A stretch of DNA of 61,339 nucleotides, the filler included. It is 5 parts of 5 records of this genome, joined end to end, with 100 filler letters (N's around TTAATTAATTAA, not from the genome) between each part and the next. Parts side by side here need not be neighbours in the genome. Positions count along the whole stretch, not along the records: positions 13,140 to 35,698 come from SRR20825006_510; 4 more parts are not named here. The stretch is one strand, 5' to 3'. The notes under the pieces were generated by a model. That model saw only the letters and a program-made list of their open reading frames with translations. It made no database searches and was not told the origin of the DNA. This document shows positions 13,040-52,414 of the stretch, in pieces. The position numbers and the translations under genes were made by a program. How positions within the stretch are numbered: position 1 is the first letter of the stretch; each line of letters starts with the position of its first letter.

Positions 13040-13139
13040 NNNNNNNNNNNNNNNNNNNNNNNNNNNNNNNNNNNNNNNNNNNNTTAATTAATTAANNNNN
13101 NNNNNNNNNNNNNNNNNNNNNNNNNNNNNNNNNNNNNNN
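13040..13139. other. artificial contig spacer
   Basis: 100-nt N run with TTAATTAATTAA. Confidence 0.99.
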
Positions 13140-13144
13140 ACAGT

Positions 13145-13219
13145 GGCCCGTTCGTCTATCGGTTAGGACGTCAGGTTTTCAACCTGAAAAGAGGGGTTCG
13201 ACTCCCCTACGGGCTGCCA
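13145..13219 (+). tRNA. tRNA-Glu (TTC)
   Basis: Cloverleaf: GGCCCGT/ACGGGCT acceptor stem, TCAGG-TTTTCAA-CCTGA anticodon arm, GGTTCGA T-loop, encoded CCA. Confidence 0.97.
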
Positions 13220-13224
13220 CTTGT
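13204..13224 (+). repeat. att core, tRNA side: CCCCTACGGGCTGCCACTTGT
   Basis: tRNA 3' end plus 5 nt; identical to 23820-23840. Confidence 0.95.
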
Positions 13225-13229
13225 CCATA

Positions 13230-14321
13230 TTATTCCTTTACTTTCAGTTGCTTGCCAGAAGTTTTGTCCAACTTGGATTGAAGGTTGGACACGTTTTTCG
13301 CTGTCAGCTTGGCAAATCCGCTGTCAGCTAGGCCGGATCGGTTGGCCTTCTTGGTGTAGGTCGCCGCCTCCTTGGTGTCGGTGTGCGCAAGGTAGGAAGC
13401 GATCTCCCATTCACTGGCCCCAGCGTTCGCCAAGCGTGTTGCACCAGCCTTGCGCAGGCCGTGCAATGATCCGGGAACACCAGCATCTACGCACCGTGCG
13501 CGGAACCAGTTTCCCAGAGACGCCACCTTGTACGGCGCATCCTTGTGGTCCAGCGTGATGAACAGCATCCGGTCGGCTGGCACGTTCAACAATTCCTCGG
13601 CCAGTTCCGGCAGGATCGGCAGATCGGCTGCGACCGATGTTTTGCCGCGACGGTAGGCAATGCGATCAACGCCATCCTTGCGGCTCACCAGTTGCTTGCC
13701 AGCCCGTGCAAGGTCTTGTCGTGCCATGCCCGTGTTCAGCGCCAGCAACAGCACCAACCGCGCTTTGGTCCCCGCACCATGACAAGCAAGAAACCGTTCG
13801 ACCTCATCATCCGTCCATGTGTGATAGCCGTCCGGGTTGGTCTTGCGTTTCTCTGCAAACTTGGCGGGGTTTGGCCCCGTGTAGTCCAGTTTCTTCGCCG
13901 CAAAATTGTACAGCATCGACAAGTTCTTTTTGACTGTGTTCGCCGCCTGCGGCCCGTCCTTCTTCGACATAATCGCTTCGATGTGACGGACCTTGAGCGT
14001 GTCGAAGTGGTATTTGCCCGCTTCAATGCGCAGCCAATCAAGTTCCTGCCGGATCGTGCGGCGTCGGCTGTCAGACAGGTTCTTGAACCGGACGCTGCCC
14101 AGATACTGTTCCACCAGCCATGACAGCGAACCACGGGCAACCGTGGATCGGATCGGGGCTTTGACCCCAGCCAATGCCGCTTCATAGGCGGCGCGAAATT
14201 CGGGGGAACCATAGGCACCTGGCAGATATGTATCGACCGGCGCTTTGCGGAACCGCCACATGACAGTGCCGTGACGGCTCACTGTCCGTGAAACATGGGG
14301 GAAGGGATTGCGGCGGGCCAT
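13230..14321 (-). CDS. int: tyrosine recombinase/integrase
   Basis: Catalytic set present: TGMARQD (R), HGLRK (HxxR), LAHT (H), TYT (Y). Confidence 0.95.
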   Translation of the reverse strand: MARRNPFPHVSRTVSRHGTVMWRFRKAPVDTYLPGAYGSPEFRAAYEAALAGVKAPIRSTVARGSLSWLVEQYLGSVRFKNLSDSRRRTIRQELDWLRIEAGKYHFDTLKVRHIEAIMSKKDGPQAANTVKKNLSMLYNFAAKKLDYTGPNPAKFAEKRKTNPDGYHTWTDDEVERFLACHGAGTKARLVLLLALNTGMARQDLARAGKQLVSRKDGVDRIAYRRGKTSVAADLPILPELAEELLNVPADRMLFITLDHKDAPYKVASLGNWFRARCVDAGVPGSLHGLRKAGATRLANAGASEWEIASYLAHTDTKEAATYTKKANRSGLADSGFAKLTAKNVSNLQSKLDKTSGKQLKVKE

Positions 14322-14500
14322 CAGAGTAAATCATCCGGGTCCGGTGCGACCGACTTGGACGCGCCTTCGATAGAAGTCAGGACAACAATGGTGCCGTCCT
14401 TTTCGATCCGCGCCGCAGCCACAGAGAGACCAGCCGCTAGCATACCTTTGGCGGCGCGCGTCACGTCTGACTGTTTGAATTGTGCGGTGCGGTTGCTCAT
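14321..14500 (-). CDS. 59-aa putative excisionase/recombination directionality factor (MSNRTAQFKQSDVTRAAKG...)
   Basis: Hand-translated; TGATG overlap with the int start; function inferred from position. Confidence 0.6.
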   Translation of the reverse strand: MSNRTAQFKQSDVTRAAKGMLAAGLSVAAARIEKDGTIVVLTSIEGASKSVAPDPDDLL

Positions 14501-15027
14501 TAGTCAGCGTTCAGCGCCAAAGACGCAGCCATAATCGAATGTTTCATGAACATTGCGGATGCAAGCCGTGCAACCATTGTTCCAACTGGCAAGACCAATG
14601 CCGCATCACCAGTGAAACTACCCATTTCGCTCGCATCTCTGAACCAATGGACGACCGGGCGATTGTCCCGGATTTCCACTCGCATGATCGCATCTATGTT
14701 CATCTCGCCAGCAATGACATTTCTGTAAATTTCATCGACATAGGCAAATAGGACGTGAGGCGATTCAGGATCGTCGTCCAACTGAACACCAAACCTAGCC
14801 AGACGATCAAAGATAATGTTCCAGACCAGATGCATCCCGGTGTAATCAACAGAGGCCCGAATGCGGCCGTCCTGCTCACGCATCGCCATCACCTTTCCAG
14901 CCTTCAATCGCGCCCGCAATGTACTCTGGTTAACGCCAATCGTTGCCGCTGCCGACGCCCCCGACTCAAGGACAGTGCCCCAATTCGAATGAAGGAAGGT
15001 CAGTGCTTCTTTGGTAAAATTGTTCAT
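14500..15027 (-). CDS. 175-aa hypothetical protein with an N-terminal HTH-like segment
   Basis: AAGGAG RBS before ATG 15027; ASAAATIGVNQSTLRARLKAG resembles an HTH; TAATG coupling to the next gene. Confidence 0.6.
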   Translation of the reverse strand: MNNFTKEALTFLHSNWGTVLESGASAAATIGVNQSTLRARLKAGKVMAMREQDGRIRASVDYTGMHLVWNIIFDRLARFGVQLDDDPESPHVLFAYVDEIYRNVIAGEMNIDAIMRVEIRDNRPVVHWFRDASEMGSFTGDAALVLPVGTMVARLASAMFMKHSIMAASLALNAD

Positions 15028-15046
15028 GTGGAATCTCCTTTGGTTG

Positions 15047-15080
15047 ACTGTATTTCCATTTAGGTTGACAGTCAACCTAA
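15047..15080 (-). promoter_or_regulatory. sigma70 promoter overlapped by a 21-bp palindromic operator
   Basis: TTGACT(15075-70)-17 bp-TACAGT(15052-47); palindrome TTAGGTTGAC-A-GTCAACCTAA at 15060-15080. Confidence 0.7.
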
Positions 15081-15104
15081 TTAAATTGTCAGTCACCCAA
15101 ACAA

Positions 15105-15341
15105 TCACCCAATGACCCGGCGTTCCGCCGTCTTGATCACATGCTCCAGCATCGCCAGCCCTGTCTTGTCCGGGTTGTGGTAGTCGCCTGCGTCGAAGCA
15201 GGTCGCGTGTGCAATCTTGCGCAGGTCGGCATATGTCACTGGACGGCGATATGCCCGCCACAGACGGAACCGCTGCCACCGGGCGCGAAGTCCCTTTCCT
15301 GTCAAATAGGTTTGACCACGAAATGTAATTGATTTTGTCAT
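15105..15341 (-). CDS. hypothetical protein (78 aa)
   Basis: ATGA overlap with the upstream ORF; lies in the leftward operon. Confidence 0.55.
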   Translation of the reverse strand: MTKSITFRGQTYLTGKGLRARWQRFRLWRAYRRPVTYADLRKIAHATCFDAGDYHNPDKTGLAMLEHVIKTAERRVIG

Positions 15342-15550
15342 GTCAGTTTCCCCGCATCGAAACGATCAAGAAATTCAAAAGCCTGTTTTTCTGCCAAGGT
15401 TGGCGTCAGATCAAAATTGGAGTGTTGGGACAGCGCATATCTCGCAATCGACAGTTCACGAGCGCAGTTGCGCAGCACGTCGATCATGTCTTTAGGTTGA
15501 CAGTTATCGTTCGCCAAAACGGCGTTATTGTCGGTCATGGTGTTCTCCAT
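15338..15550 (-). CDS. hypothetical protein (~66-70 aa)
   Basis: GGAG RBS before the MTDNN start; coupled to its neighbours. Confidence 0.55.
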   Translation of the reverse strand: MENTMTDNNAVLANDNCQPKDMIDVLRNCARELSIARYALSQHSNFDLTPTLAEKQAFEFLDRFDAGKLT

Positions 15551-15553
15551 TGG

Positions 15554-15703
15554 TCAGGTTGCTGGGGTTTCGGTGCGTTCCATCCGTTCGCGGATCGCTC
15601 GGATGATTTCAGAGTTCTGGCTGGACACGTTCGCCGCAGCCTGTGCAGCAATCCAATCCTTTAGGTCAGGGGGCAGACGTAGCTGCAATTGCTTAGGTTT
15701 CAT
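15554..15703 (-). CDS. Arc-family ribbon-helix-helix regulator, 49 aa (MKPKQLQLRLPPDLKDWIAAQAAANVSSQNSEIIRAIRERM...)
   Basis: Hand-translated; GGAGG RBS; LRLP..LK..I...A..N..S.N.EI Arc pattern; absent from the ORF track. Confidence 0.85.
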   Translation of the reverse strand: MKPKQLQLRLPPDLKDWIAAQAAANVSSQNSEIIRAIRERMERTETPAT

Positions 15704-15716
15704 GTCAACCTCCATA

Positions 15717-15794
15717 CATATCACAATGCGACTATCGCAAAGTGCGAGTATTGCGTCAAGAGAAATATCATATCACAAAGCGATGATCGCAAAG
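15717..15794. promoter_or_regulatory. duplicated operator block between divergent Arc genes
   Basis: 26-bp direct repeat, 23/26 identical (15717-15742, 15769-15794), built from ATCRC-AAW-GYGAY-like units; TTGACG-17-GATAGT leftward promoter candidate. Confidence 0.65.
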
Positions 15795-15803
15795 GGATAC
15801 ATC

Positions 15804-16097
15804 ATGAGCGACGAACCATCAAAGAAACAAGACCAGTTTATCGTTAGATTTCCAGACGGTATGCGTGACAAGATCAAGGATGCCGCAGACCAGAACAACC
15901 GCAGCATGAACGCGGAAATTGTTTTGGCGCTGGAAGATTGGTTGACAAAAAATTCCAAAGAACAGATCGAAGCGCAACAACTGCGTGATGCCGCCAAGCA
16001 CATGATGAAGGAACGCAGTATGATCGAAGTTCGGCTTGCCGATATTCTCGCAAGGCTGGACCACATTGAAGCCCGTAGAGAACCTGAGAAGAAATGA
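15804..16097 (+). CDS. Arc-family DNA-binding repressor with C-terminal coiled coil (97 aa)
   Basis: QDQFIVRFPDGMRDKIKDAADQNNRSMNAEIV. Confidence 0.88.
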   Translation: MSDEPSKKQDQFIVRFPDGMRDKIKDAADQNNRSMNAEIVLALEDWLTKNSKEQIEAQQLRDAAKHMMKERSMIEVRLADILARLDHIEARREPEKK

Positions 16098-16324
16098 CGC
16101 CGGACTATCAAACCACTCTGAAAACGAATGATGCCGCCAAACTGCTGGGACGGTTAGCCGCGCGGATTGAAGCTGACCCATACGATTCCGCCAGCCGTAG
16201 TGCTTCCTTGGCAGTTGCCACTGCCATAAGCACAGGGTCCGGTAACATAGTAACTTTGTTCCTCACTGAAAAAGAGAAACAAGCCTGCATAGCCGCTGAA
16301 AGAGATTTTCGAGTAATCAAATAG
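16094..16324 (+). CDS. hypothetical protein (76 aa)
   Basis: ATGA overlap with the Arc repressor gene. Confidence 0.5.
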   Translation: MTPDYQTTLKTNDAAKLLGRLAARIEADPYDSASRSASLAVATAISTGSGNIVTLFLTEKEKQACIAAERDFRVIK

Positions 16325-16491
16325 GCCGGGACCATCCAGCCCCGGCCCAGACCAGCCCCGGTGCAGAACCGTGCTGGCCTCGCGCCACGCCCTCCAAAGG
16401 AATTGAAGGCCGCGCCTTGTCGGGGTTTACCCACTCACCGACGAACGGGGTTGCTTCTGGTCTTATCCCCAAGGCGCAACCCGCCTATCTC

Positions 16492-17568
16492 TTAAATGGC
16501 GGCGTCGCCCTTACCCCAATCCACCAGCTTCAACGCCTGCTCAGGATCGACACCCGCCTCTTTCGCCAGCGCCAGCGTCTGCACAATCGCGCCCAAGGCC
16601 CGCGCACGGCCACCAGCATCGAATGCTTGCAAGGGTCGCATCACATCCAGCTTGACGGGACTGCCCAGCTTTTCGGATGCCTCTTGCGCAATCATCGCCG
16701 CCACCGGCATGAGCGCCCATTGGGCAAGGTGCCTTTGCGCCTCTCTGACCATCGGTCCAGTGGTGGCGATGTTGCTCAGACCGGGCAAAACTCCATAGGC
16801 CATTTCGATGCCAGCCCGTGCCGCCGCCCATGTTTCGCGCGTCATGGCTTTGGACAGATCGGGCGTTACATCCTGAGACTTCCAATCTTGCACAGGTGCC
16901 GCCGCGCCCGCCGCCACCACGTTGACAGATTCGCGGATCAGCACCCGGCCACGATTGCCACGGAACCCACGGGCCAGCGCATCCATGTCTTGCTCAGGTG
17001 CCTCAGGGAATGGCACAATCTGCGAGCCGATAGGCGCGTTGTTGTAGACTTCGGACAGCGCCGTTTCCATCACATGCAACAGACCCGCCGTCAGCCGCGC
17101 CCGCCGCAGAGGCGACGAACCAACATAAGGCATGGTCATTTCCGAGCCGATACGCAGGTGCAGTACCTCGCCCGCCAGGACGGTCATAGTCTGCCCACCG
17201 CCCGCGTCGGGGATGCCGACACGATAGGCGACAGGCTTGGAAAAGCGCGTGGTCAAATCCCAATCCGAGCAAGGCAACAGCCCGTCCTCTTGGATCACAA
17301 ACACCGCTTCACCGCGCAAGGCCAGCGACCGCGCAGCAAGCGCCAGCATGGCCGGGGTCAGCAGATCGGTGCCGTCCACATCCGCCAGCATCAAGCCCCC
17401 TTCCCAGAGGGACACGCAGCCTTGGACACAGCCCGTAAGTTCGGCCACGCCATCAACGCCGCTGATATAATCGGCCCGCGCCGCCATGACTTGGCTGGTG
17501 TATCCGGTACCGCTGGACCGGGTTTCGACTTCGGCAATTTCTTGCACACGTTTCTTGAATGGCCACAT
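16492..17568 (-). CDS. phage portal protein (HK97-like)
   Basis: SLALRGEAV, EVLHLR, GSSPL, AYGVLP pattern; start MWPFKK coupled to the upstream stop. Confidence 0.8.
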   Translation of the reverse strand: MWPFKKRVQEIAEVETRSSGTGYTSQVMAARADYISGVDGVAELTGCVQGCVSLWEGGLMLADVDGTDLLTPAMLALAARSLALRGEAVFVIQEDGLLPCSDWDLTTRFSKPVAYRVGIPDAGGGQTMTVLAGEVLHLRIGSEMTMPYVGSSPLRRARLTAGLLHVMETALSEVYNNAPIGSQIVPFPEAPEQDMDALARGFRGNRGRVLIRESVNVVAAGAAAPVQDWKSQDVTPDLSKAMTRETWAAARAGIEMAYGVLPGLSNIATTGPMVREAQRHLAQWALMPVAAMIAQEASEKLGSPVKLDVMRPLQAFDAGGRARALGAIVQTLALAKEAGVDPEQALKLVDWGKGDAAI

Positions 17569-18113
17569 CACTTTGCCCTCCGATAATTGCGCAGCAGATC
17601 GCCAGCGCCTGAATACTGCATCGCACGCGCCACCCATGCCGGGTTGCGGTTCAACGATTCCTCGATAGGCCCAATGGAAACGGACGTGCTGGACGCCCCA
17701 GCCGTTCCCGGATCGTCTGCCAAATATTCGGCAAGCCGCCGGAAAGCCTCGTTCACGGGCGCAGGCACATCACCAGCGCCAACTTGGGCGGTGACGCGAT
17801 AGAAACCTGCACCTTGCAGACAGATGCCAATAGGCGCGTCCAAGAGCGTGATCGGTTCCCATGCGCCATCAATCCAAAACTCTGCCATCTGCGACACCAC
17901 AGGCGTCAGAGGTGGTGCCCAGATCGCCCCCGTGGTGCCTTCAATGATCCAAGTCACATCGCGTTCAGTGAACCGATAGGCGGTGTAGCTTTCGATCCTT
18001 GCCCAGATCGCATCGGCACTCAGCGCCGCCGCCGCCGTAGACAGGCCAGCAGGCACATCAGGATAAGCATCGGGTGTTTCCTCAATCTGTTTCAAAACGT
18101 CGATCATGTTCAT
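17568..18113 (-). CDS. putative head-tail connector/adaptor (gp6/gp15-like)
   Basis: RIESYT..F.ER, VPAPV.EA..RLAEY, C-terminal LLRNYRR; position in the head module. Confidence 0.6.
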   Translation of the reverse strand: MNMIDVLKQIEETPDAYPDVPAGLSTAAAALSADAIWARIESYTAYRFTERDVTWIIEGTTGAIWAPPLTPVVSQMAEFWIDGAWEPITLLDAPIGICLQGAGFYRVTAQVGAGDVPAPVNEAFRRLAEYLADDPGTAGASSTSVSIGPIEESLNRNPAWVARAMQYSGAGDLLRNYRRAK

Positions 18114-18748
18114 GCCCTCCAACGGTTGCGATGATTGCTGGGCAGAATTACCCCGCCGGGGGTGGCCACGTCCCACGAACGCGACTCAATCTGCGTTTCT
18201 GGATATGCTGGACGGGTCACAATCGACATTTCGTAGAGCAAGGCTGAAAGAACCGTGCGAATGATCGCATTGAACGCCCCGTTTTCAGGGTCAGTGCCTT
18301 CATCCTCAATCATTTCAGGCTGAGGAACGCGCCGCTTTGGGGGCAGACGAAAACCCGGTGAAATACCGATAGCCAAGCCCGCAGCAACCGCCGCAAGGAT
18401 ATCTTTGACATAGGATACCTCTTGCATTTCTTCGGTGATCGTCGCGGTGAAGGTCACGCCCGCATCACTGTCTTGAATGTCCAACGTACCAGAGCGCACA
18501 GACGCCAAGGGCCGGTCATAGCTATGGCCCGCCAGCAGGTGAATGTCTTTCTTGCCGCCGTGGTCGGATGGTGTGTTGATCCGATAGGCAAAGGCGCGGG
18601 GCGCAATCACCTCTTTCTTTGGCCTGCCGGTGCGGCCCCCATCGCTGAGGACCGCCCGTTTGCCGTAGGGAAAAGAGCCTTGCAGCGCCAGCGCGCCGGA
18701 TGCTCTCTTGCGTAGTTCCAGACCGCCGCCTGCAAAGCCCTCCAGCAT
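18110..18748 (-). CDS. HK97-family prohead maturation protease
   Basis: EVIAPRAF, LLAGH, GISPGF, LYEMSIVTRPAYPET. Confidence 0.9.
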   Translation of the reverse strand: MLEGFAGGGLELRKRASGALALQGSFPYGKRAVLSDGGRTGRPKKEVIAPRAFAYRINTPSDHGGKKDIHLLAGHSYDRPLASVRSGTLDIQDSDAGVTFTATITEEMQEVSYVKDILAAVAAGLAIGISPGFRLPPKRRVPQPEMIEDEGTDPENGAFNAIIRTVLSALLYEMSIVTRPAYPETQIESRSWDVATPGGVILPSNHRNRWRA

Positions 18749-20037
18749 TATGCAGCCGCCAATTGAATGTCGTTCAAGATGCGAGTTTGCACCGGACGCG
18801 CCACCGTCTGATCCATCGTTGCAAGCGCTGTAATCCGCAGCCCGCCTGATTGTGCATCGGTGTACACATCACGGATCAGATCCACCGCGCCCCATGTGCC
18901 GACAAAGACAGGTGCAACGCCGCCGGTAGACGTGGACAGGATCATGCTAGTGGCCAAGGGATCACCAGAAGGGGCAGGCAAGCCATTCGACGTGACATTG
19001 ATGTTTTGCGGGAATGTCCCGGTGACACCACGCCCAGCCAAAAGGAATGCAAGTCGATAGTATTCAGTCGTTTGCGTGACTGTGTTCAACGTGCCTTCCA
19101 GCTTGCCGAACAATTCCGGCCGCATCAGAGCGCGAATCTGCCCCGGCGATGTAATCGCGTTCGACGTCATGAACGCCACAACCTCATCCAGAAAGTTCTG
19201 GTACGTCGGTTCGTCACTCACATCGGTTTCAGTGATGCCGTAAGTCGATGCACCTGTGACAATGCCCAGAGGTTCGCCACCGGACCCCGCGCCCATAAAG
19301 ATCGCACGATCCATTTCTTGTGCCATCGCCCCGTTCATGTCTCGACGCACGGCCTGTTCAAGCGCAGCGCCCGATTGTTTGAGCGCCTTGCGGCTGATCC
19401 GCATTTGAATGCCCATCGTGTGATCGGGCTTCATGGCACGGTCAGTGGTGGTGTACTGAGTCGGGCCAGCGACGTTGCCGCCCTCAGTTGATGCCCAGCC
19501 TGCCGAGACGCTGGAAGTCGTCACCGGCCACTCGATTTCGCCGGACCCGATGCTGATCATCTGTGCGCCCATCTTTGCGGCCACACTGTCAGGAAACAGG
19601 CGGTCGATGATCGGGCGGGTCTGGATCGGGTCAGGTGTGCCACTGGACACCGTGTTGCGCACCTCAAGTGCATCCCAAGGAACCGGTATGCCGCGATATC
19701 CCCCTTGGCTGCGCAGCTCAGAAACGATTTCTTGCGTGCGGCCATCCAGTGCGCGGCCCTCATCAAGATTCAGCGCAACCTGGCGCATCTCGAAACCGGC
19801 CATCATGTCCGACCATTCTTTGTCAGAACGGGTTTCCAGTTCGGCCCCGGCGTCCCGGCGTTCCTCATCCTCAGACACCAGAGCGGCACGATACTGCACC
19901 TCTTTGGCCCGATATTCGGTATCCAGTTCGCCCATCTTGCGGGTTTCGTCCTCAGATGGCTTTTCGATGTTCGCCAGTTCCGACAGCGATTGACGGATTT
20001 CAGAGCGGCGCAGTTCCAGCTTTTTAGATGTCAGCAT
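18748..20037 (-). CDS. major capsid protein, HK97 fold with N-terminal delta domain
   Basis: Coiled-coil N-terminus; AGWASTEG, ISRKALKQS, DRAIFMGAG...PLGI. Confidence 0.9.
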   Translation of the reverse strand: MLTSKKLELRRSEIRQSLSELANIEKPSEDETRKMGELDTEYRAKEVQYRAALVSEDEERRDAGAELETRSDKEWSDMMAGFEMRQVALNLDEGRALDGRTQEIVSELRSQGGYRGIPVPWDALEVRNTVSSGTPDPIQTRPIIDRLFPDSVAAKMGAQMISIGSGEIEWPVTTSSVSAGWASTEGGNVAGPTQYTTTDRAMKPDHTMGIQMRISRKALKQSGAALEQAVRRDMNGAMAQEMDRAIFMGAGSGGEPLGIVTGASTYGITETDVSDEPTYQNFLDEVVAFMTSNAITSPGQIRALMRPELFGKLEGTLNTVTQTTEYYRLAFLLAGRGVTGTFPQNINVTSNGLPAPSGDPLATSMILSTSTGGVAPVFVGTWGAVDLIRDVYTDAQSGGLRITALATMDQTVARPVQTRILNDIQLAAA

Positions 20038-20353
20038 TTGTTTTTCCTTTCATGCTCGACAGAAGGTCACGCCATTGCTGGCGCTTTGGAGAAAGCGGGG
20101 TGTGACCCACTTCCAATCTCGTTTTGCGCGCATGACAGCGCCCGCAGAGAATTTGTAAATTCGACAGGGTGTAAGACAGGTCAGGCCGATCCCGGACGGG
20201 CAGAACGTGGTCACATTCCAGCCGCCGCCGTTCGCCGCACTGAACGCACTGCCAGCCGTCACGGTCCAGCGCCTGCATCCGCAGAGCCTTCCAGCGCGGC
20301 CCGCGTGTGACCTTGGCAGAGTGCCGCTTGTATTCGTCGCGCAGCCTGCTCAT
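20024..20353 (-). CDS. HNH endonuclease (HK97 gp74-like packaging factor)
   Basis: RW..LR...L.RD...CVQC, DHVLP, NLQILCGRCHARKT. Confidence 0.92.
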   Translation of the reverse strand: MSRLRDEYKRHSAKVTRGPRWKALRMQALDRDGWQCVQCGERRRLECDHVLPVRDRPDLSYTLSNLQILCGRCHARKTRLEVGHTPLSPKRQQWRDLLSSMKGKTNADI

Positions 20354-20700
20354 GCCGTCACCTGCATGTCGTAACAGATCGTCACGCCGTCCGGCCCAAG
20401 GATGCCAACCCGCTTGATCTCATAGGTCTTGCCACCGATCACCAGCGTGTCAGACTTCATTGGCACCACATCCGCCACGGCCATGAACACGCGCAGATCA
20501 GAAACTCCGATCAGGGTGCCGTCCATGTCCTCGATGCTGTATTCAGTCACCGCGACCACCACCGGATATTCCAGCGGTTCATTCGGTTCGGCGGGTGGAT
20601 CGTCCCACGGATTTTGCGGTTCGTCCGGTTCGGTGGACGGTTTCACCAGCGTTGCCGCCTGCCCGAAACGATTGATCAGTTTCGTGGCTGTTTGCGTCAT
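20350..20700 (-). CDS. putative head-closure/head-completion protein
   Basis: ~116 aa, beta-rich; LINRFG, DGTLI..D, DTLVIGGKTYEI; coupled to terL and HNH. Confidence 0.55.
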   Translation of the reverse strand: MTQTATKLINRFGQAATLVKPSTEPDEPQNPWDDPPAEPNEPLEYPVVVAVTEYSIEDMDGTLIGVSDLRVFMAVADVVPMKSDTLVIGGKTYEIKRVGILGPDGVTICYDMQVTA

Positions 20701-22232
20701 TACCCCCATGCCAGTCGTCCTTTCGCTTGTGTTGGTGCGTGGCTCATTCGGACACCCTGAGCGACGGCCAGAACCGTCGCTGCAACCGGATCAATCCGAC
20801 CCGTAGAGCGGCCAGCGGCCAGCTTGTGATTGCCCGCCGGATCAACCAGCGTGATTGCGTCGGAAAATGCAGAGCGCAGCAGCAGCGACGGCATGGCCTT
20901 CACCTCGCCCTCGAACACGGCACGGCGCAGGCGTTCGCAATCCTCAGAGCCGTCTTTCCATCCGAACCCGCGCCAGATGAACGGCACCCGATCAAGGCCC
21001 GCATCGCGCAGAGCCTCTAGAAATTCAGCGTGGCGGAACCTGTCACCAACGATTGCCACCGGGCTTTGCCCGTCCAGCTTGGTCACAACGTCAGCCATGA
21101 ACCGGGCGACCGGCACAGTTGCGTCACCCATCGTCACCAGTTCGCCACGGTCAGCCATTTCAATGTACCTCTGGCCCACGCCGTCAGCCTGCCCACGATC
21201 CCCAAGACCGGGCTTGCAAGGGAAAGCCCCGACACATTCCAGCCGTGACGTTTCGGGCCAGTACATCGCCGCCGCAGACATTGACCGCGACCCGCCGAGG
21301 TCGATGCCCAGAACAACAGGCCCGGAACGTGGGGGCAGATCGTCGGGCGATACCTCGCAGGACAGCCATTCATCGACGGTCAACAACACCGACCGGTTGT
21401 CAGAGGCGACCCGTTCATTGCGATTAAGGTTTCGGAAGCTGGACAGTGCAGAGCCGCCCCGTGCGATTGCCCGCCGCGCCTGCGCCACCAGCCATTCCGC
21501 AGAGGGGCCAATACCCTCAGACGCGCCGGGGTTCGCCACCAGCAGGCTTGCCAGATCGTCAGGCGGCAAGCCGGGGTCAGGGCGATGTTCTTGCACATAA
21601 GTGCCGGGCGGCGGTTCATCCATCCAGCGTGAAAACGTGTTCGCATCGTCGGGGGCGGATGTGCTGATAATCAAGGCGCGGCCATCGCGCTTGCCCAGCC
21701 CGGACAGGATGGCGTTTTCCAGCGCGTCACCCTTGTCTCGTTCCCATGCAGCACGTTCATCTAGGATTGCCAGCGTCGGCGCACCGCCGAGAATAGACTT
21801 GCCGTCAGCCGCAATCACCCGCGCAAGCCCGCCGCCGTTCTCAGAGGTTTCGACTTCCAGCTTTGACCCGCGCCGGATCGTGAATTGTTCCTGTTCGTTC
21901 TCTGGCAAGCCCTCGATGAAACCCAAGAGGAACCCGAAGGCCGTCTTGGCTTGGTCCCGGTTCCGAGCCGCAAAGATGATTTCACGTTTCGGTTGCGGTG
22001 CAATTTCGCCCATCAGATGCCCTAGAGCGATGCCTGCCGACAGACTGGTTTTCGCGTTGCCGCGACCGATCGACAGAATGCCCGCTTCGATGCCCTTGGC
22101 GAACGCCCCCCGCACGAAGTCTTTCTGATATGTCGCCAGTTTGACCCGCTTGCCCGCCAACCGACCCTCAGGAACGATCAGCTTGGGAAGGAAACGCAGC
22201 GCCGCCGATGCCTCTTTGGATGCCCTAACCAT
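20700..22232 (-). CDS. terL: terminase large subunit
   Basis: YQ motif, Walker A GRGNAKT, Walker B AILDE, IISTS motif III, GIDLG nuclease motif, RIDP. Confidence 0.92.
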   Translation of the reverse strand: MVRASKEASAALRFLPKLIVPEGRLAGKRVKLATYQKDFVRGAFAKGIEAGILSIGRGNAKTSLSAGIALGHLMGEIAPQPKREIIFAARNRDQAKTAFGFLLGFIEGLPENEQEQFTIRRGSKLEVETSENGGGLARVIAADGKSILGGAPTLAILDERAAWERDKGDALENAILSGLGKRDGRALIISTSAPDDANTFSRWMDEPPPGTYVQEHRPDPGLPPDDLASLLVANPGASEGIGPSAEWLVAQARRAIARGGSALSSFRNLNRNERVASDNRSVLLTVDEWLSCEVSPDDLPPRSGPVVLGIDLGGSRSMSAAAMYWPETSRLECVGAFPCKPGLGDRGQADGVGQRYIEMADRGELVTMGDATVPVARFMADVVTKLDGQSPVAIVGDRFRHAEFLEALRDAGLDRVPFIWRGFGWKDGSEDCERLRRAVFEGEVKAMPSLLLRSAFSDAITLVDPAGNHKLAAGRSTGRIDPVAATVLAVAQGVRMSHAPTQAKGRLAWG

Positions 22233-22235
22233 GAT

Positions 22236-22320
22236 TTTTCCCCCAAATTTTTGGGAGAGAGAAAGCAAGACCCCCCACCGCGACCGCAGCCCCTCCCCAA
22301 AAGGGGAGCATTGGGACCTT
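22236..22320 (-). other. putative cos/packaging site
   Basis: GGGGAGGGG..CGCGGTGGGGGG..CTTTCTCTCTCCCAAAAATTT directly upstream of terL; resembles cos regions of HNH-dependent phages (from memory). Confidence 0.45.
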
Positions 22321-22424
22321 ATATGGCGTTGAAGTCAGAGAGAAATTTCCTTCTATGGGATACTGATCTGTCGTCACGACGATCTCCAATATTATACATG
22401 AGTTAGCGTTATGTTGTAACAACT

Positions 22425-22842
22425 ATTTTTCTAGACATACTCCCGCACCCGCTACTGTCCCCCTCTACACAAGGATTAGTTCCTTGCTCGGCTGACAGTC
22501 CTACCTTCCTGATCCGTATCCACGCGATGCCCTGTATCGGGGGCCAGCCGCTGTCCCGCTGGGTTCTCTCCAGCCCCGTCCTTTGCAGCCTTGCGCCGGT
22601 ACGGTCCCCGCACTGAGGCGGTGGGTTTCTTAGTCGCGTTTCTGAGCGGCCTAGTAGGCACTGGTTCCGCTCGGAGTGGGTTAAAAGTTCCCGGATCATA
22701 TCCCCGCCGATTTCGCTCGACGGTCAAAAGCTAGAACGTGGCCCGCGTCCGGTGATGTGCCCCTATGGGTATGCTCACTATGAACGCGGGCTGTTGCTTC
22801 ACCCGTGACGCGACTGCCGCTCTACAGCAGCGCCACGGGCGG
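22425..22842 (-). ncRNA. candidate large structured RNA / replication origin region
   Basis: Continuous series of hairpins; no credible protein ORF. Confidence 0.45.
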
Positions 22843-23094
22843 TTAGCTTTCGATCAAGTCGAAGTCGCCCCCATCGTCGCTGTCAGGCGCGAACAGGTCA
22901 TTGACCAACCCGTGCATGACAGACAGTTGTTTCGTGGAAGGGGTCCAGCCCCGGCGGCGCGACTGTCCTATGACGGACTTCGCAAAGTTCTTGGACCATT
23001 CGTCAGTAGCCAAGCGGGCGACGGTCGGCATGTGATAGATCAGGCGGTCCACTTCATCATCGGCCTGGAAGGGTTTGCGGTGTTGATACGTCAT
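22843..23094 (-). CDS. hypothetical protein (83 aa; DEWSKNFAKSV..Q.RRRGWTPSTKQ)
   Basis: GAGG RBS, ATGA coupling. Confidence 0.7.
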   Translation of the reverse strand: MTYQHRKPFQADDEVDRLIYHMPTVARLATDEWSKNFAKSVIGQSRRRGWTPSTKQLSVMHGLVNDLFAPDSDDGGDFDLIES

Positions 23095-23360
23095 GCCAGC
23101 ACCTCCCCATCCAGAACCCCGAACAGAGCCATAGAGGCCGCGCGATATGCGGTGTCGTCGTCCAGGGTGACCAGAGCCGCGCAGGCCAGCGCCTCGCGCT
23201 CCCCTACGGTCAGACGTGCGGTCAGGACGGTTACGAACCCTTCCCAAGCCTCGGAGTTCGCCACGGTCAGGACGTACCCGAATGCTTTAGCTGCCCGCTT
23301 GTGACGATCCTCTGCGAACAGGTTCATGGCGTTGGGGCGGGGAATGTGGTGGATGCTCAT
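23091..23360 (-). CDS. hypothetical protein (89 aa)
   Basis: ATGA coupling at both ends. Confidence 0.65.
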   Translation of the reverse strand: MSIHHIPRPNAMNLFAEDRHKRAAKAFGYVLTVANSEAWEGFVTVLTARLTVGEREALACAALVTLDDDTAYRAASMALFGVLDGEVLA

Positions 23361-23575
23361 GCCGACTTCCCCCCGATCTTGAAGGGACGCTTGGTCAAAC
23401 CGGCAGTTACCTTTGCATCAGCGATTGCCGATTCACGGCAGGACCAGCGGCGCAGGCGTGTCTTGAGGCTCTTGCCGGGGCAAGGCGTGATCAGCACCAC
23501 GTCGAAGTAGCGGCCCGCCTTATTCACGGTGTAGTAGCTGGTCGCCGCCGTGGGCAGCTTGGTGATGTTGCTCAT
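23357..23575 (-). CDS. hypothetical basic protein (72 aa, MSNITKLPTAA...)
   Basis: ATGA coupling at both ends. Confidence 0.65.
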   Translation of the reverse strand: MSNITKLPTAATSYYTVNKAGRYFDVVLITPCPGKSLKTRLRRWSCRESAIADAKVTAGLTKRPFKIGGKSA

Positions 23576-23840
23576 GCCGCCACCCCGCAGAAATGCCGCA
23601 GGATAATTGCTGGCGCTCCGGCCCATTCCGGGCTATCGTTGCCGGGAAACTCGACCGTTTCTTTACTGCCCTTTACGCCGTTGAACCCTGCAAGGTTCGC
23701 GGCGTTTTTTTTTGCCGGTGTCCGGTTGGGCAAACCGGAATTTTCCCCAATGCTTTCAATGGGGCTGATTTGGTAGGTTGGGATTCCCAACCCGTTGTTA
23801 TCTTTAGGGTAATTTTGCCCCCCTACGGGCTGCCACTTGT
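23572..23840 (-). CDS. att-split ORF: 3' part of a 90-aa frame whose RBS and ATG lie at the other end of the element (13238-13226)
   Basis: In-frame join across the att core in the reconstructed attP; stop coupled (ATGA) to the next gene. Confidence 0.55.
23820..23840 (+). repeat. att core, distal copy
   Basis: Identical 21 bp to 13204-13224. Confidence 0.95.
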
Positions 23841-23900: not shown

Positions 23901-24926
23901 CTACCCCGCTTGCTGCGAGGTTGGCTCGTTCGTGTCCAGGCCGCGGCGCAGTGCCGGGCTGTAGAAGGTCTGGCGGCCCCGCCCTGCCCGTTTCGAGGCA
24001 TAGAGCGCCACATCCACGTCATCGAGCAGGCTGCGCATGTCCGCACCCGATCCGGGCTCAAAGAACACGGTGCCGATGCTGGCCGAAATGCAGCAATCGT
24101 TGCCCTCGAACGGCATCGGCACCTCGAGCCGTTTGATCAGGCGGCTGCCGATGCGGCGCAGGGCGGGGATGTCGCGCACGTCAGGCAGGACGATCACGAA
24201 TTCATCGCCGCCCAATCGCGCCACCGTGTCTTCGCTGCGGGTTTCGTCCACCATGATTCGGGCCACGGTTTGCAGCACATGGTCGCCCGCCGCATGGCCC
24301 AGCGTGTCATTGACCAGTTTGAAGAAATCCAGGTCCAGTTGCATCAGCGCAAACTGCGTGCCCCGTTCCAGCGCGCGCGCCATGACGTGATCCATCGCGC
24401 GGCGGTTTTTCAGCCCCGTCAGCGTGTCGGTGAACGCCTGTTCCTCGGCGGCGATCATCGCCCCCTGCAGGCGCAGGTTCAGCTTGCGCCAGGCTTCCAT
24501 CGCGGTTGATTTCGCCTCGACCAGATAGAGCATTTCCGTGGCCAGGTCCGTGGGAGCGAAATCGGCATGGGTCAGGTCATAGGTGCGCACTCCGTCCACC
24601 ACCGAGATGCCAAAGGACAGGTTCACGATCAGCACCCCGTCGGGCCCGCAGGCCACGGCCACGCCCTTGAGTTCGGTCACCGGAGAATCGCGCAGTTGCA
24701 GGTGCAGCTTGATCCCCGCACTGTCGCGCAGGTCGTTCATGCTGGTCACGGTGCGCGGCCGTTTCAGGGCAAACACCTCGAGAAATCGGGCGCCGACCCA
24801 GTCCAGATCGGGGCGCAGTTTGCGCAGGGTGTCGCCCACGTGGATAATGTGGCCCGTGTGATTGATCATCACATGCATCGGGCACAGCACGTCCAGCACG
24901 TCGGACATGTTGTCCGGGCCGGTCAC
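23901..24926 (-). CDS. diguanylate cyclase with N-terminal PAS/HNOBA-like domain
   Basis: TDTLTGLKNRR, DLDFFK..ND..GH, RLGGDEF. Confidence 0.9.
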   Translation of the reverse strand: MTGPDNMSDVLDVLCPMHVMINHTGHIIHVGDTLRKLRPDLDWVGARFLEVFALKRPRTVTSMNDLRDSAGIKLHLQLRDSPVTELKGVAVACGPDGVLIVNLSFGISVVDGVRTYDLTHADFAPTDLATEMLYLVEAKSTAMEAWRKLNLRLQGAMIAAEEQAFTDTLTGLKNRRAMDHVMARALERGTQFALMQLDLDFFKLVNDTLGHAAGDHVLQTVARIMVDETRSEDTVARLGGDEFVIVLPDVRDIPALRRIGSRLIKRLEVPMPFEGNDCCISASIGTVFFEPGSGADMRSLLDDVDVALYASKRAGRGRQTFYSPALRRGLDTNEPTSQQAG

Positions 24927-25510
24927 AGGGCACCCGCGCCCAGGGCGAACCGGCGTCCTTCGGCAAACTCGGTTTCCACAAGCCGGATCGACACCGTTTC
25001 CATGCCCAGCGCGCCGCCCTCGAACTCCAGCAGGGCCAGCACGCCATAATCATCGGCCATGGTGCGCAACAGCCCCATCATCACATGGCCGAAGCTGGGA
25101 ATGCTGGTGCCGCAGATCAGGCCGAAATGCGTGGCGGAATATTCGTGCAGTTCGATATGCGGCAGGATCAGATCGCTGACCGCGAGGCGCGCGCGGTCTT
25201 GCAGATCGTCCAGCGAATGCAGAAGTTCGACAAAGGACACGCCACCAAAGCGCATCAGCCGCCGCAACCCTTCGGTGTTGGGATGGCTGACCAGATATGT
25301 GCCCACGTCCTCCATCAGGTCGGCCTCGCACCGGTTCAGCACCGTGCCCACCGCCGCGATCACCTGCGGCGCCAGCACGTCGTCATAGATCAGCATCGGT
25401 TCGAATTCGACAAAGCCCAGATCGGCCAGAGTTGCAGCCTCTGCCCATTTGTCGGGACCGTAGCTGTCGGTCACAAAGCATTCGATTGCGCGATAAATTA
25501 ACCCATGCAT
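24923..25510 (-). CDS. H-NOX (heme NO-binding) domain protein, atypical
   Basis: MHGLI..F....YG...W, YDD, LRRLMRFGG; translationally coupled to the DGC. Confidence 0.85.
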   Translation of the reverse strand: MHGLIYRAIECFVTDSYGPDKWAEAATLADLGFVEFEPMLIYDDVLAPQVIAAVGTVLNRCEADLMEDVGTYLVSHPNTEGLRRLMRFGGVSFVELLHSLDDLQDRARLAVSDLILPHIELHEYSATHFGLICGTSIPSFGHVMMGLLRTMADDYGVLALLEFEGGALGMETVSIRLVETEFAEGRRFALGAGAL

Positions 25511-35698: not shown

Positions 35699-35798
35699 NN
35701 NNNNNNNNNNNNNNNNNNNNNNNNNNNNNNNNNNNNNNNNNNTTAATTAATTAANNNNNNNNNNNNNNNNNNNNNNNNNNNNNNNNNNNNNNNNNNNN
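35699..35798. other. artificial contig spacer
   Basis: N run with TTAATTAATTAA. Confidence 0.99.
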
Positions 35799-44401: not shown

Positions 44402-44501
44402 NNNNNNNNNNNNNNNNNNNNNNNNNNNNNNNNNNNNNNNNNNNNTTAATTAATTAANNNNNNNNNNNNNNNNNNNNNNNNNNNNNNNNNNNNNNNNNNN
44501 N
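44402..44501. other. artificial contig spacer
   Basis: N run with TTAATTAATTAA. Confidence 0.99.
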
Positions 44502-52314: not shown

Positions 52315-52414
52315 NNNNNNNNNNNNNNNNNNNNNNNNNNNNNNNNNNNNNNNNNNNNTTAATTAATTAANNNNNNNNNNNNNNNNNNNNNNNNNNNNNN
52401 NNNNNNNNNNNNNN
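52315..52414. other. artificial contig spacer
   Basis: N run with TTAATTAATTAA. Confidence 0.99.

Follow-up and report, generated by a model that had tools for sequence, protein, structure and literature searches.

We analysed a 61,339-nt stretch of draft-assembly DNA (the window) that carries, between two exact copies of a 21-bp repeat, a 10,616-bp island encoding its own phage-type head and packaging proteins. It is likely, in our judgement, that this island belongs, as an intact copy, to a family of ~10.5-kb elements that is widespread in marine and soil Alphaproteobacteria and behaves as capsid-forming phage satellites. The family is apparently undescribed, its most likely means of spread being tails borrowed from some other phage, and the element probably represents a new lineage of such satellites. 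The first-pass annotation of the window had proposed a compact functional satellite rather than a decayed prophage; the second half of that proposal stands, whereas “functional” is something we infer. Capsid-forming satellites have been described in Gammaproteobacteria, Firmicutes and, more recently, Actinobacteria. No description of the present family was found in the literature, in which the supplements of papers could list alphaproteobacterial hits and subscription journals lay outside coverage.

The boundaries of the element are set by a tRNA gene and two att cores:

13145..13219, plus strand: tRNA-Glu(ttc), the integration target (ARAGORN; Rfam tRNA, 58.8 bits)
13204..13224: attL core, 21 bp, overlapping the 3′ end of the tRNA gene (exact direct repeat family D20)
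23820..23840: attR core, 21 bp (exact direct repeat family D20)

The two att cores, previously reported as intact and 10,616 bp apart, are indeed exact copies of CCCCTACGGGCTGCCACTTGT with that spacing; the left one covers the final 16 nt of tRNA-Glu(ttc), and by our own arithmetic the chance expectation for such a repeat pair in 13.5 kb is ~2e-5. An Rfam search of the element yielded nothing besides the tRNA. The window itself is a chain of contigs, with N44-TTAATTAATTAA-N44 spacers at 13040-13139, 35699-35798, 44402-44501 and 52315-52414, so that it comprises at least five draft-assembly contigs, and neighbourhood across a spacer is artificial. Both att copies lie on a single contig, and a junction falls only 5 nt before the start of the tRNA-Glu gene; the sequence to the left of the element is therefore not its true host flank.

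The core of the element is a head and packaging module, transcribed from terL to the portal gene:

20700..22232, minus strand: large terminase TerL, 510 aa (phrog_9 3e-56; PF03354 and PF20441)
20350..20709, minus strand: head-closure (stopper) protein Hc1 (phrog_161 4.5e-20)
20024..20353, minus strand: HNH endonuclease (PF01844 1.7e-9; phrog_144 3e-20)
18748..20037, minus strand: HK97-fold major capsid protein, 429 aa (PF05065 4.6e-16; phrog_617; TIGR01554)
18110..18748, minus strand: prohead serine protease S78 (PF04586 1.6e-14; phrog_80)
17568..18113, minus strand: head-tail adaptor, 181 aa, assigned from its predicted fold (no sequence family match)
16492..17568, minus strand: portal protein, 358 aa (phrog_12 3.8e-7; TIGR01537; PF04860 scores 36.3 bits, short of its 39.1 cut-off)

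This order agrees with the uninterrupted, translationally coupled module reported earlier: adjacent reading frames share 1-14 nt, as ATGA or TGATG, and every core gene is full length. The portal is 49-85% identical across related loci, and the HNH protein corresponds to the packaging accessory of HK97-type terminases. The 181-aa protein had been called a connector, originally as a guess. Its AlphaFold model, built from 23 family sequences (pLDDT 87.3), finds its best Foldseek matches among neck chains of the Rhodobacter capsulatus gene transfer agent (RcGTA), of Agrobacterium phages Milano and 7-7-1, and of T5; RcGTA neck chain 6tba_2A ranks first (E 5e-4, TM 0.45), with phage necks scoring nearly equal. 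Direct sequence comparison with the Phage_connect_1-type protein of one relative, L041, gave nothing significant. Among relatives, however, the 181-aa protein and a 180-aa Phage_connect_1/phrog_442 adaptor, encoded upstream of terL, are mutually exclusive: over 83 loci, 62 carry one type, 15 the other, none both and 6 neither. Given the neck-chain match and this mutual exclusivity, we read the 181-aa protein as a head-tail adaptor, an assignment that the predicted structure supports. The Hc1 model (pLDDT 78.5) best matches phage neck or stopper chains, namely those of phiCD508, P1, T1 and SPP1 gp16, with RcGTA only in tenth place.

Isolated phages are distant from the module. By TerL, the nearest ones belong to the HK022/HK97 group (30% identity, 95% of the length aligned), and the best capsid among isolated phages is at most 29% identical (14 records with a match among 50,697). 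Sequence searches of the PDB with the capsid, adaptor and stopper proteins returned marginal matches only. MT835917.1 (15.5 kb), whose capsid alignment is the widest of any phage record, was considered as a possible capsid-forming island because of its size and dropped: its 35% GC and the layout of its open reading frames (ORFs), with long, unprofiled ones located downstream of the capsid match, point to a piece of an ordinary phage.

Several gene starts were trimmed, to the ATG at 22232 for terL and to 17568 (portal), 18113 (adaptor), 15703 (arc1) and 15807 (arc2). In searches of 21 candidate ORFs against Pfam, PHROG and NCBIfam profiles, no family of tail, tape-measure, lysis, primase, helicase or small terminase (TerS) proteins was hit, in line with what had been noted before; the sole “small terminase” PHROG match was that of the HNH domain to phrog_4581. 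The att-bounded unit is thus without the tail, tape-measure and lysis genes of a complete tailed prophage. Nor did tail or lysis genes turn up among 53 other ORFs of the window (ORFs of at least 70 aa by our own heuristic; Pfam E<=1e-5): the ORFs profiled are housekeeping genes, with no prophage genes among them.

The closest relatives of the element are not the 35-45-kb prophages that the first-pass annotation had named as the outcome telling against it, and conserved ~10-kb tail-less homologues are not lacking. A capsid search of species genomes returned 13 loci, in Rhodobacterales and three Mesorhizobium, and one of IMG/VR returned 30 contigs, all of them <=12,350 bp. Of 401 genomes sampled from one host family, 43 gave a capsid match at E<=1e-30; 40 of these are close, and 3 have matches of only ~31% identity. 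Further hosts include Paracoccus, Rhodobacter capsulatus DSM 1710, Hoeflea, Nitratireductor, Ponticaulis, Hyphococcus and a Caulobacterales metagenome-assembled genome, so that relatives are present in Rhodobacterales, Hyphomicrobiales and Caulobacterales-type genomes. Another carrier is Sulfitobacter sp. F26169L (L007). The copy in the R. capsulatus type strain DSM 1710 (L147, NZ_QKZO01000003.1) matches at 72% identity in terL and 59% in the capsid. Counting loci with at least two core genes, several of them cut by contig ends, the order terL-(hc1)-HNH-capsid-protease-adaptor-portal is constant in the 13 genome loci, the 30 IMG/VR loci and 20 further genome regions; the exceptions are one locus without a portal gene, L013, and some in which the adaptor gene is missing or relocated. 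Common relatives, a conserved order and a capsid this far from those of isolated phages support the distinct alphaproteobacterial family that had been proposed.

Homologues integrated at tRNA genes are also alike in size. Among 20 genome regions cut out around family members, direct repeats of 16-58 bp flank the element in 13, and 12 of these 13 are tRNA-anchored. Together with the window element, L017, L022 and the circular L041, they make up 17 delimited copies, which span 9,940-11,147 bp (mean 10,470, standard deviation 373) despite differing accessory genes. L041, an IMG/VR contig of 10,073 bp, has ends that overlap by 133 nt, 132 of them identical, so that a circle of 9,940 bp, or a concatemer, results; its genes comprise the same head module, a D5-type primase-helicase and a Phage_connect_1 adaptor. 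Insertion sites comprise tRNA-Glu, Asn, Gln, Ser, Phe, Met, Gly, Thr, Cys, Leu, Arg, Lys and Pro genes, plus tmRNA, and the relatives encode several types of integrase, at either end of the element.

In ten att-bounded relatives with 146 ORFs, none of the ORFs matched a tail, lysis or genuine TerS family. Their PHROG categories are integrase, excisionase/regulator, primase/helicase, TerL, Hc1, HNH, capsid, protease, portal, adaptor, Arc and anti-repressor. The window copy had been described as having no Rep, Arc regulators instead of AlpA/Stl, and no visible TerS. Judged by sequence-family matches, all three describe this copy, and the last extends to the relatives; the first two do not describe the family, in which Prim-Pol plus AAA_25 (L024, L032, L065), D5-type (L041) or AAA_25 genes alone (L007, L023, L033, L057, L062, L073) occur, along with AlpA/HTH_17/phrog_66-type regulators and P4-type integrases. 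The three loci with distant capsids (L074, L075 and L076, from genomes G165, G393 and G133) form a deeper second clade, ~30% identical in the capsid and with the same gene order, in which 10,813 and 10,385 bp separate tRNA-anchored repeats. As two of these three loci share both architecture and size with the rest, the satellite design appears to be old.

Immediately upstream of terL lies a conserved non-coding part of the element, preceded by the element's best promoter match:

22235..22320, minus strand: family-wide conserved non-coding leader (alignments, motif scans)
22391..22420, minus strand (22420->22391): sigma70-like promoter GTTACA-18-TATAAT (10/12 positions; consensus match only)

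In the leader, the invariant GGTCCCAATGC (22318-22308) is followed by ~40 variable nt and CTTTCTCTCT, ending at the terL ribosome-binding site. The GGTCCCAATGC site is present in 41 of the 47 loci that were fetched by capsid similarity, i.e. independently of the site itself. The R. capsulatus copy has it too, and it is absent from the deeper clade. Its distance to the terL ATG is 55-91 nt in 85 of 97 site-bearing loci and 325-613 nt in the other 12. A motif scan of the viral collection retrieved 57 contigs (52 of them <=14 kb, the longest 26,790 bp), and all 55 that were newly found in this way carry the module. The scan of genomes gave 51 stretches, 50 of them new, and in 45 of these 50 terL adjoins the site; the remaining five comprise three in which the site lies at the edge of the stretch, a short contig without a match (L142), and L167, on the Pseudarthrobacter sp. 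N5 chromosome. This last one, with no family gene beside it, is the sole match outside Alphaproteobacteria and is probably due to chance. In whole-collection scans, the site is essentially restricted to the satellite family.

We considered whether the leader might code for a small coupled ORF (VPMP...FSLPK) or the C-terminus of a TerS, and rejected this, since L030 has in-frame stops, which mark the conserved leader as non-coding, and only the DNA motif is conserved. An RNA element was likewise dropped, RNAalifold giving three trivial pairs and no compensatory changes. Because this is an HNH-type system and GGTCCCAATGC is found a short way upstream of its terminase gene, the leading idea is that the region is a candidate packaging (cos) site; alternatively, it may be a regulatory site of the late operon.

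Among known systems, the element most resembles those phage-inducible chromosomal islands that form capsids (cf-PICIs), with EcCIEDL933 of E. coli as the prototype. Both are small integrative islands with their own HK97 capsid, protease, portal, HNH, TerL and two head-tail joining proteins, and without a tail or holin gene, and relatives of the element also share P4-type integrases, AlpA/HTH_17-type regulators and primase-helicases with them. In the accessible text of Alqurainy et al. (bioRxiv 10.1101/2022.09.08.507074), proteobacterial cf-PICIs have the order capsid-protease-portal-connectors-hnh-terS-terL. Capsid and protease likewise precede the portal in the element, but its order differs in having terL first, and TerS is not recognised in it or in the 146 ORFs of the ten relatives. 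It carries Arc repressors and no recognised pri-rep, and the family measures ~10.5 kb, as opposed to the median of 14 kb given in the accessible text of PMC10085698; Alphaproteobacteria are not mentioned as hosts in the main text of either source. The cfPICI model of SatelliteFinder, as outlined in PMC10085698, lists 11 core components and accepts at least 9 (Type C or better). Our own profile searches recovered 8 of the 11 (integrase, capsid, protease, portal, adaptor, stopper, HNH and TerL, with no tail or holin genes), TerS and primase-replicase not being found. The element would work like a cf-PICI but falls outside the membership model as written, and is set apart by gene content and order. 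The family resembles cf-PICIs more than the window copy suggests: judged by their gene sets, relatives with a P4-type integrase, an AlpA-like gene and a primase-helicase are closer to them, still with no TerS.

Other comparisons are less close. HK97/HK022-type cos phages share the nearest TerL, the HK97-type capsid, protease and portal, and an HNH protein accompanying the terminase, whereas the element lacks their tail, lysis, TerS and full replication and lysogeny modules, is about one quarter of their genome size, and has the order of portal, protease and capsid reversed. RcGTA is similar in its alphaproteobacterial hosts and in its small-headed particles of HK97 type, as predicted for the element too. 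Gene transfer agents, however, are tailed clusters at a fixed locus, with no integrase or att sites, while the element has an integrase, att sites, many insertion sites in its family and a conserved site upstream of terL, and no tail genes; in a PDB sequence search its capsid did not match that of RcGTA at E<=0.01. The marine VEIMEs (Eppley et al., PMC9618062) and PICMIs (PMC10803314) are also integrative marine satellites, of similar or smaller size, but according to the accessible text of these sources they have no capsid genes. The marine “Charybdis” elements are unrelated, with no HK97 capsid, terminase or portal in the part of their description that was available.

The left arm of the element holds the integrase gene and a set of small, mostly unassigned genes around a divergent regulatory region:

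13230..14321, minus strand: tyrosine integrase, 363 aa (PF00589 2e-11; phrog_1 8.6e-33)
14321..14500, minus strand: 59-aa ORF, coupled with int (no match in Pfam, PHROG or NCBIfam)
14500..15027, minus strand: 175-aa protein, its ORF open up to 15279 (no Pfam, PHROG or NCBIfam match)
15105..15341, minus strand: 78-aa ORF, with an ATGA overlap with the upstream ORF (no family match)
15338..15550, minus strand: 70-aa ORF (no family match)
15554..15703, minus strand: Arc-type ribbon-helix-helix regulator 1 (arc1), 49 aa (PF03869 2.1e-5; phrog_795/228)
15717-15742 and 15769-15794: two 26-bp direct repeats between the divergent arc genes (family D14)
15807..16097, plus strand: Arc-type ribbon-helix-helix regulator 2 (arc2), 96 aa, divergent from arc1 (PF03869 8.9e-15; phrog_7906 4e-19)
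16094..16324, plus strand: 76-aa ORF (o76), co-transcribed with arc2 (no family match)
16322..16349, minus strand: terminator-like hairpin, a 12-bp stem and then a T-rich tail (pattern match only)

The integrase, described earlier as catalytically intact, retains R201, K227, H287-x-x-R290, H313 and Y322, which we take to be the catalytic set of tyrosine recombinases. Its gene is the last of a leftward operon that begins with arc1, whose ATG at 15703 follows a GGAGG ribosome-binding site, and continues through four small ORFs. Homologues of the 59-aa ORF adjoin the integrase gene in L063 and L068 (tblastn, 34-37% identity). The 175-aa protein has a single homologue in a collection of 5.8 billion proteins; its ESM Atlas neighbours, at 0.96 and 0.93, include some with MerR_1, and it is a possible MerR/AlpA-like helix-turn-helix regulator or excisionase, offered as a lead only. 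At E<=1 the element has no AlpA, MerR or HTH_17 match, and two Arc ribbon-helix-helix proteins are present. Each 26-bp repeat holds a TGCGAT..ATCGCA-type palindrome, and the pair overlaps a sigma70-like TTGACG-17-GATAGT (15759->15731; promoter scan, consensus match only); judged by position and sequence, the repeats are likely the operators of a two-operator switch. The hairpin (16349->16322) sits between the convergent portal and o76 genes. In 18 relatives, the slot after the portal gene is taken by an XRE-type repressor; in the Arc subtype it is taken by Arc genes, and in the element o76 is located there.

The right arm comprises three further genes and a second conserved stretch:

22843..23094, minus strand: 83-aa ORF (no family match; homologues in 8 other loci)
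23091..23360, minus strand: 89-aa ORF (no family or ESM Atlas match)
23357..23575, minus strand: 72-aa ORF, the first gene after attR (no family match)
23561..23714: conserved non-coding stretch inside attR (blastn; no Rfam match)

The 72-, 89- and 83-aa genes are ATGA-coupled and are followed by ~610 nt without a convincing gene, in which the promoter match upstream of the leader is found, and then by terL. A homologue of the 89-aa ORF lies directly upstream of an AAA_25 helicase gene in 5 relatives. The stretch at 23561-23714 is 83-84% identical in L012, L015, L023, L036 and L038, which are otherwise divergent, and identity reaches 97% over a 39-nt core (23676-23714) in L024 and L040. A hairpin and a following T-run on the plus strand belong to the stretch, with a terminator-like site at 23682-23699. 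In L024 its counterpart is located a short way upstream of the replication genes, and in L023 between an HTH_17 gene and an AAA_25 helicase ORF; from this placement, it may be an early promoter/operator, an origin or a terminator. Directly outside attR, at 23901-25510, an H-NOX (HNOB) gene is followed by a gene for an HNOBA-GGDEF diguanylate cyclase, a nitric-oxide-type sensing pair; both are on the minus strand and read towards the element.

From these parts, a satellite life cycle may be pieced together. The element would lie silent in tRNA-Glu, held by the divergent Arc-type repressor pair acting on the two operator repeats. A helper signal would then release the leftward operon, from arc1 through int, and drive excision, and the long right-to-left operon would be transcribed from upstream of terL. 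Capsid, protease and portal would form a small HK97-type prohead sized for ~10.5 kb, into which TerL and HNH would cut and package the element, probably from GGTCCCAATGC upstream of terL. The element's own adaptor and stopper would close the portal and offer a docking surface, and the helper would supply tails and lysis, as the element has genes for neither.

Several points weigh against this reading. HK97-type packaging normally needs a TerS, and none is recognised in the element or in the relatives' 146 ORFs; similarly, Pfam, PHROG and NCBIfam reveal no replication gene in the window copy. The element is found, identical and in the same context, in three sequencing runs of one study, one of which may be the source of the window; no RNA data set with the element was listed. 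Its contig depth in the three runs is the same as that of the flanks (~595-676 vs 654-682), and no circle or empty-site joint occurs among the contigs of four runs, contigs being prone to drop rare forms. Excision, particle formation and dependence on a helper are predictions from the genes. The loci were not deduplicated: for example, L015/L087, L023/L108, L032/L114, L035/L090 and L036/L092 are the same contigs, and L001/L016 and L005/L029, with identical matches, may be the same DNA. The shortness of IMG/VR contigs is partly due to assembly and provirus trimming, which leaves the 17 delimited copies as the only evidence on size; several of their att repeats are only 16-19 bp long, and the one mismatch in the overlap of L041 makes a tandem or population assembly possible.

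Some of these points would also fit a real family of which the window copy is a crippled member, one that has lost its replication module, and perhaps its packaging specificity factor, and is capable at best of excision. We regard this as unlikely. No primase, helicase or initiator is recognised here, relatives carry primase or helicase genes, none of the first 43 related loci has a homologue of the seven left-arm ORFs at 14321-16324, and the depth of the element equals that of its flanks. Every core gene is nevertheless full length and coupled, and 5 of the 10 att-bounded relatives (L060, L067, L070, L072 and L075) have no recognisable replication gene either and keep a size of 10.2-10.9 kb. 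The arrangement of Arc genes plus int beside the portal gene recurs in L067, L106, L119 and L123; L067, the only one of these four to be examined for it, has no recognised replication gene. Finally, a seawater metagenome run, X4, contains a relative ~93-98% identical in the integrase and head genes, with 528 and 626 unrelated letters in place of 14504-15103 and 15335-16505, respectively. Such swapping of modules is what a circulating element should show, and it argues for a lineage that is still evolving.

A second possibility, to which we give a similarly small chance, takes the missing TerS at face value: the family would package itself without one, its own TerL-HNH pair or a host factor recognising GGTCCCAATGC. 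In a bolder form, the host's RcGTA-type gene transfer agent would be the helper and give both tails and lysis, which would explain the persistence of the family across Rhodobacterales, Hyphomicrobiales and Caulobacterales-type hosts. The 146 ORFs with no TerS, the family-specific site, the match of the adaptor to RcGTA and the presence of a member in R. capsulatus itself are compatible with this reading.

It is more doubtful still that the family makes DNA-filled heads with no use for helper tails, either as tail-less particles taken up in some other way or as a GTA-like module domesticated by the host. Rhodobacterales, Hyphomicrobiales and Caulobacterales-type groups are known to carry RcGTA-like agents, and the host range of the family lies within them; no helper has been identified, and tblastn finds Hc1 in only 31 of 109 loci. 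Adaptor and stopper proteins, however, serve tail joining, and integrases, att repeats and more than 12 different insertion sites speak of selfish mobility rather than of a fixed host locus, as does the patchy distribution over 43 of 401 genomes; the element-specific conserved site and the narrow size range suggest packaging of the element itself over that of random host DNA. That the element is a one-off remnant of an ordinary 35-45-kb HK97-like prophage that kept its head module is scarcely credible, even though tail-less remnants are common in genomes and L013 (1-1375) is a decayed family copy with a shortened adaptor gene, no portal and a tRNA-Met gene abutting it, for 17 independently delimited copies of 9.9-11.1 kb share one gene order, none of 146 ORFs is of tail or lysis type, the longest contig found by capsid or motif is far from 35-45 kb, and no isolated phage capsid exceeds 29% identity.

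We thus return to a family of alphaproteobacterial satellites that would build their own heads and borrow their tails. In the literature that we found, Alphaproteobacteria had no capsid-forming satellites, despite their abundant marine roseobacters, the rhizobia, and R. capsulatus, the model host of gene transfer agents. Presence in about one tenth of the sampled genomes of one host family would amount to a sizeable, uncounted route of gene transfer, and some small “viral” contigs of marine metagenomes would have their origin in the family. The tight size of 10-11 kb, the missing small terminase and the invariant site next to terL provide handles on packaging specificity and head size, and the member residing in R. 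capsulatus makes bench tests practical, for example of GTA tails as the helper. Should the family indeed package itself without a TerS, it would represent the smallest self-specifying head-and-packaging unit known.

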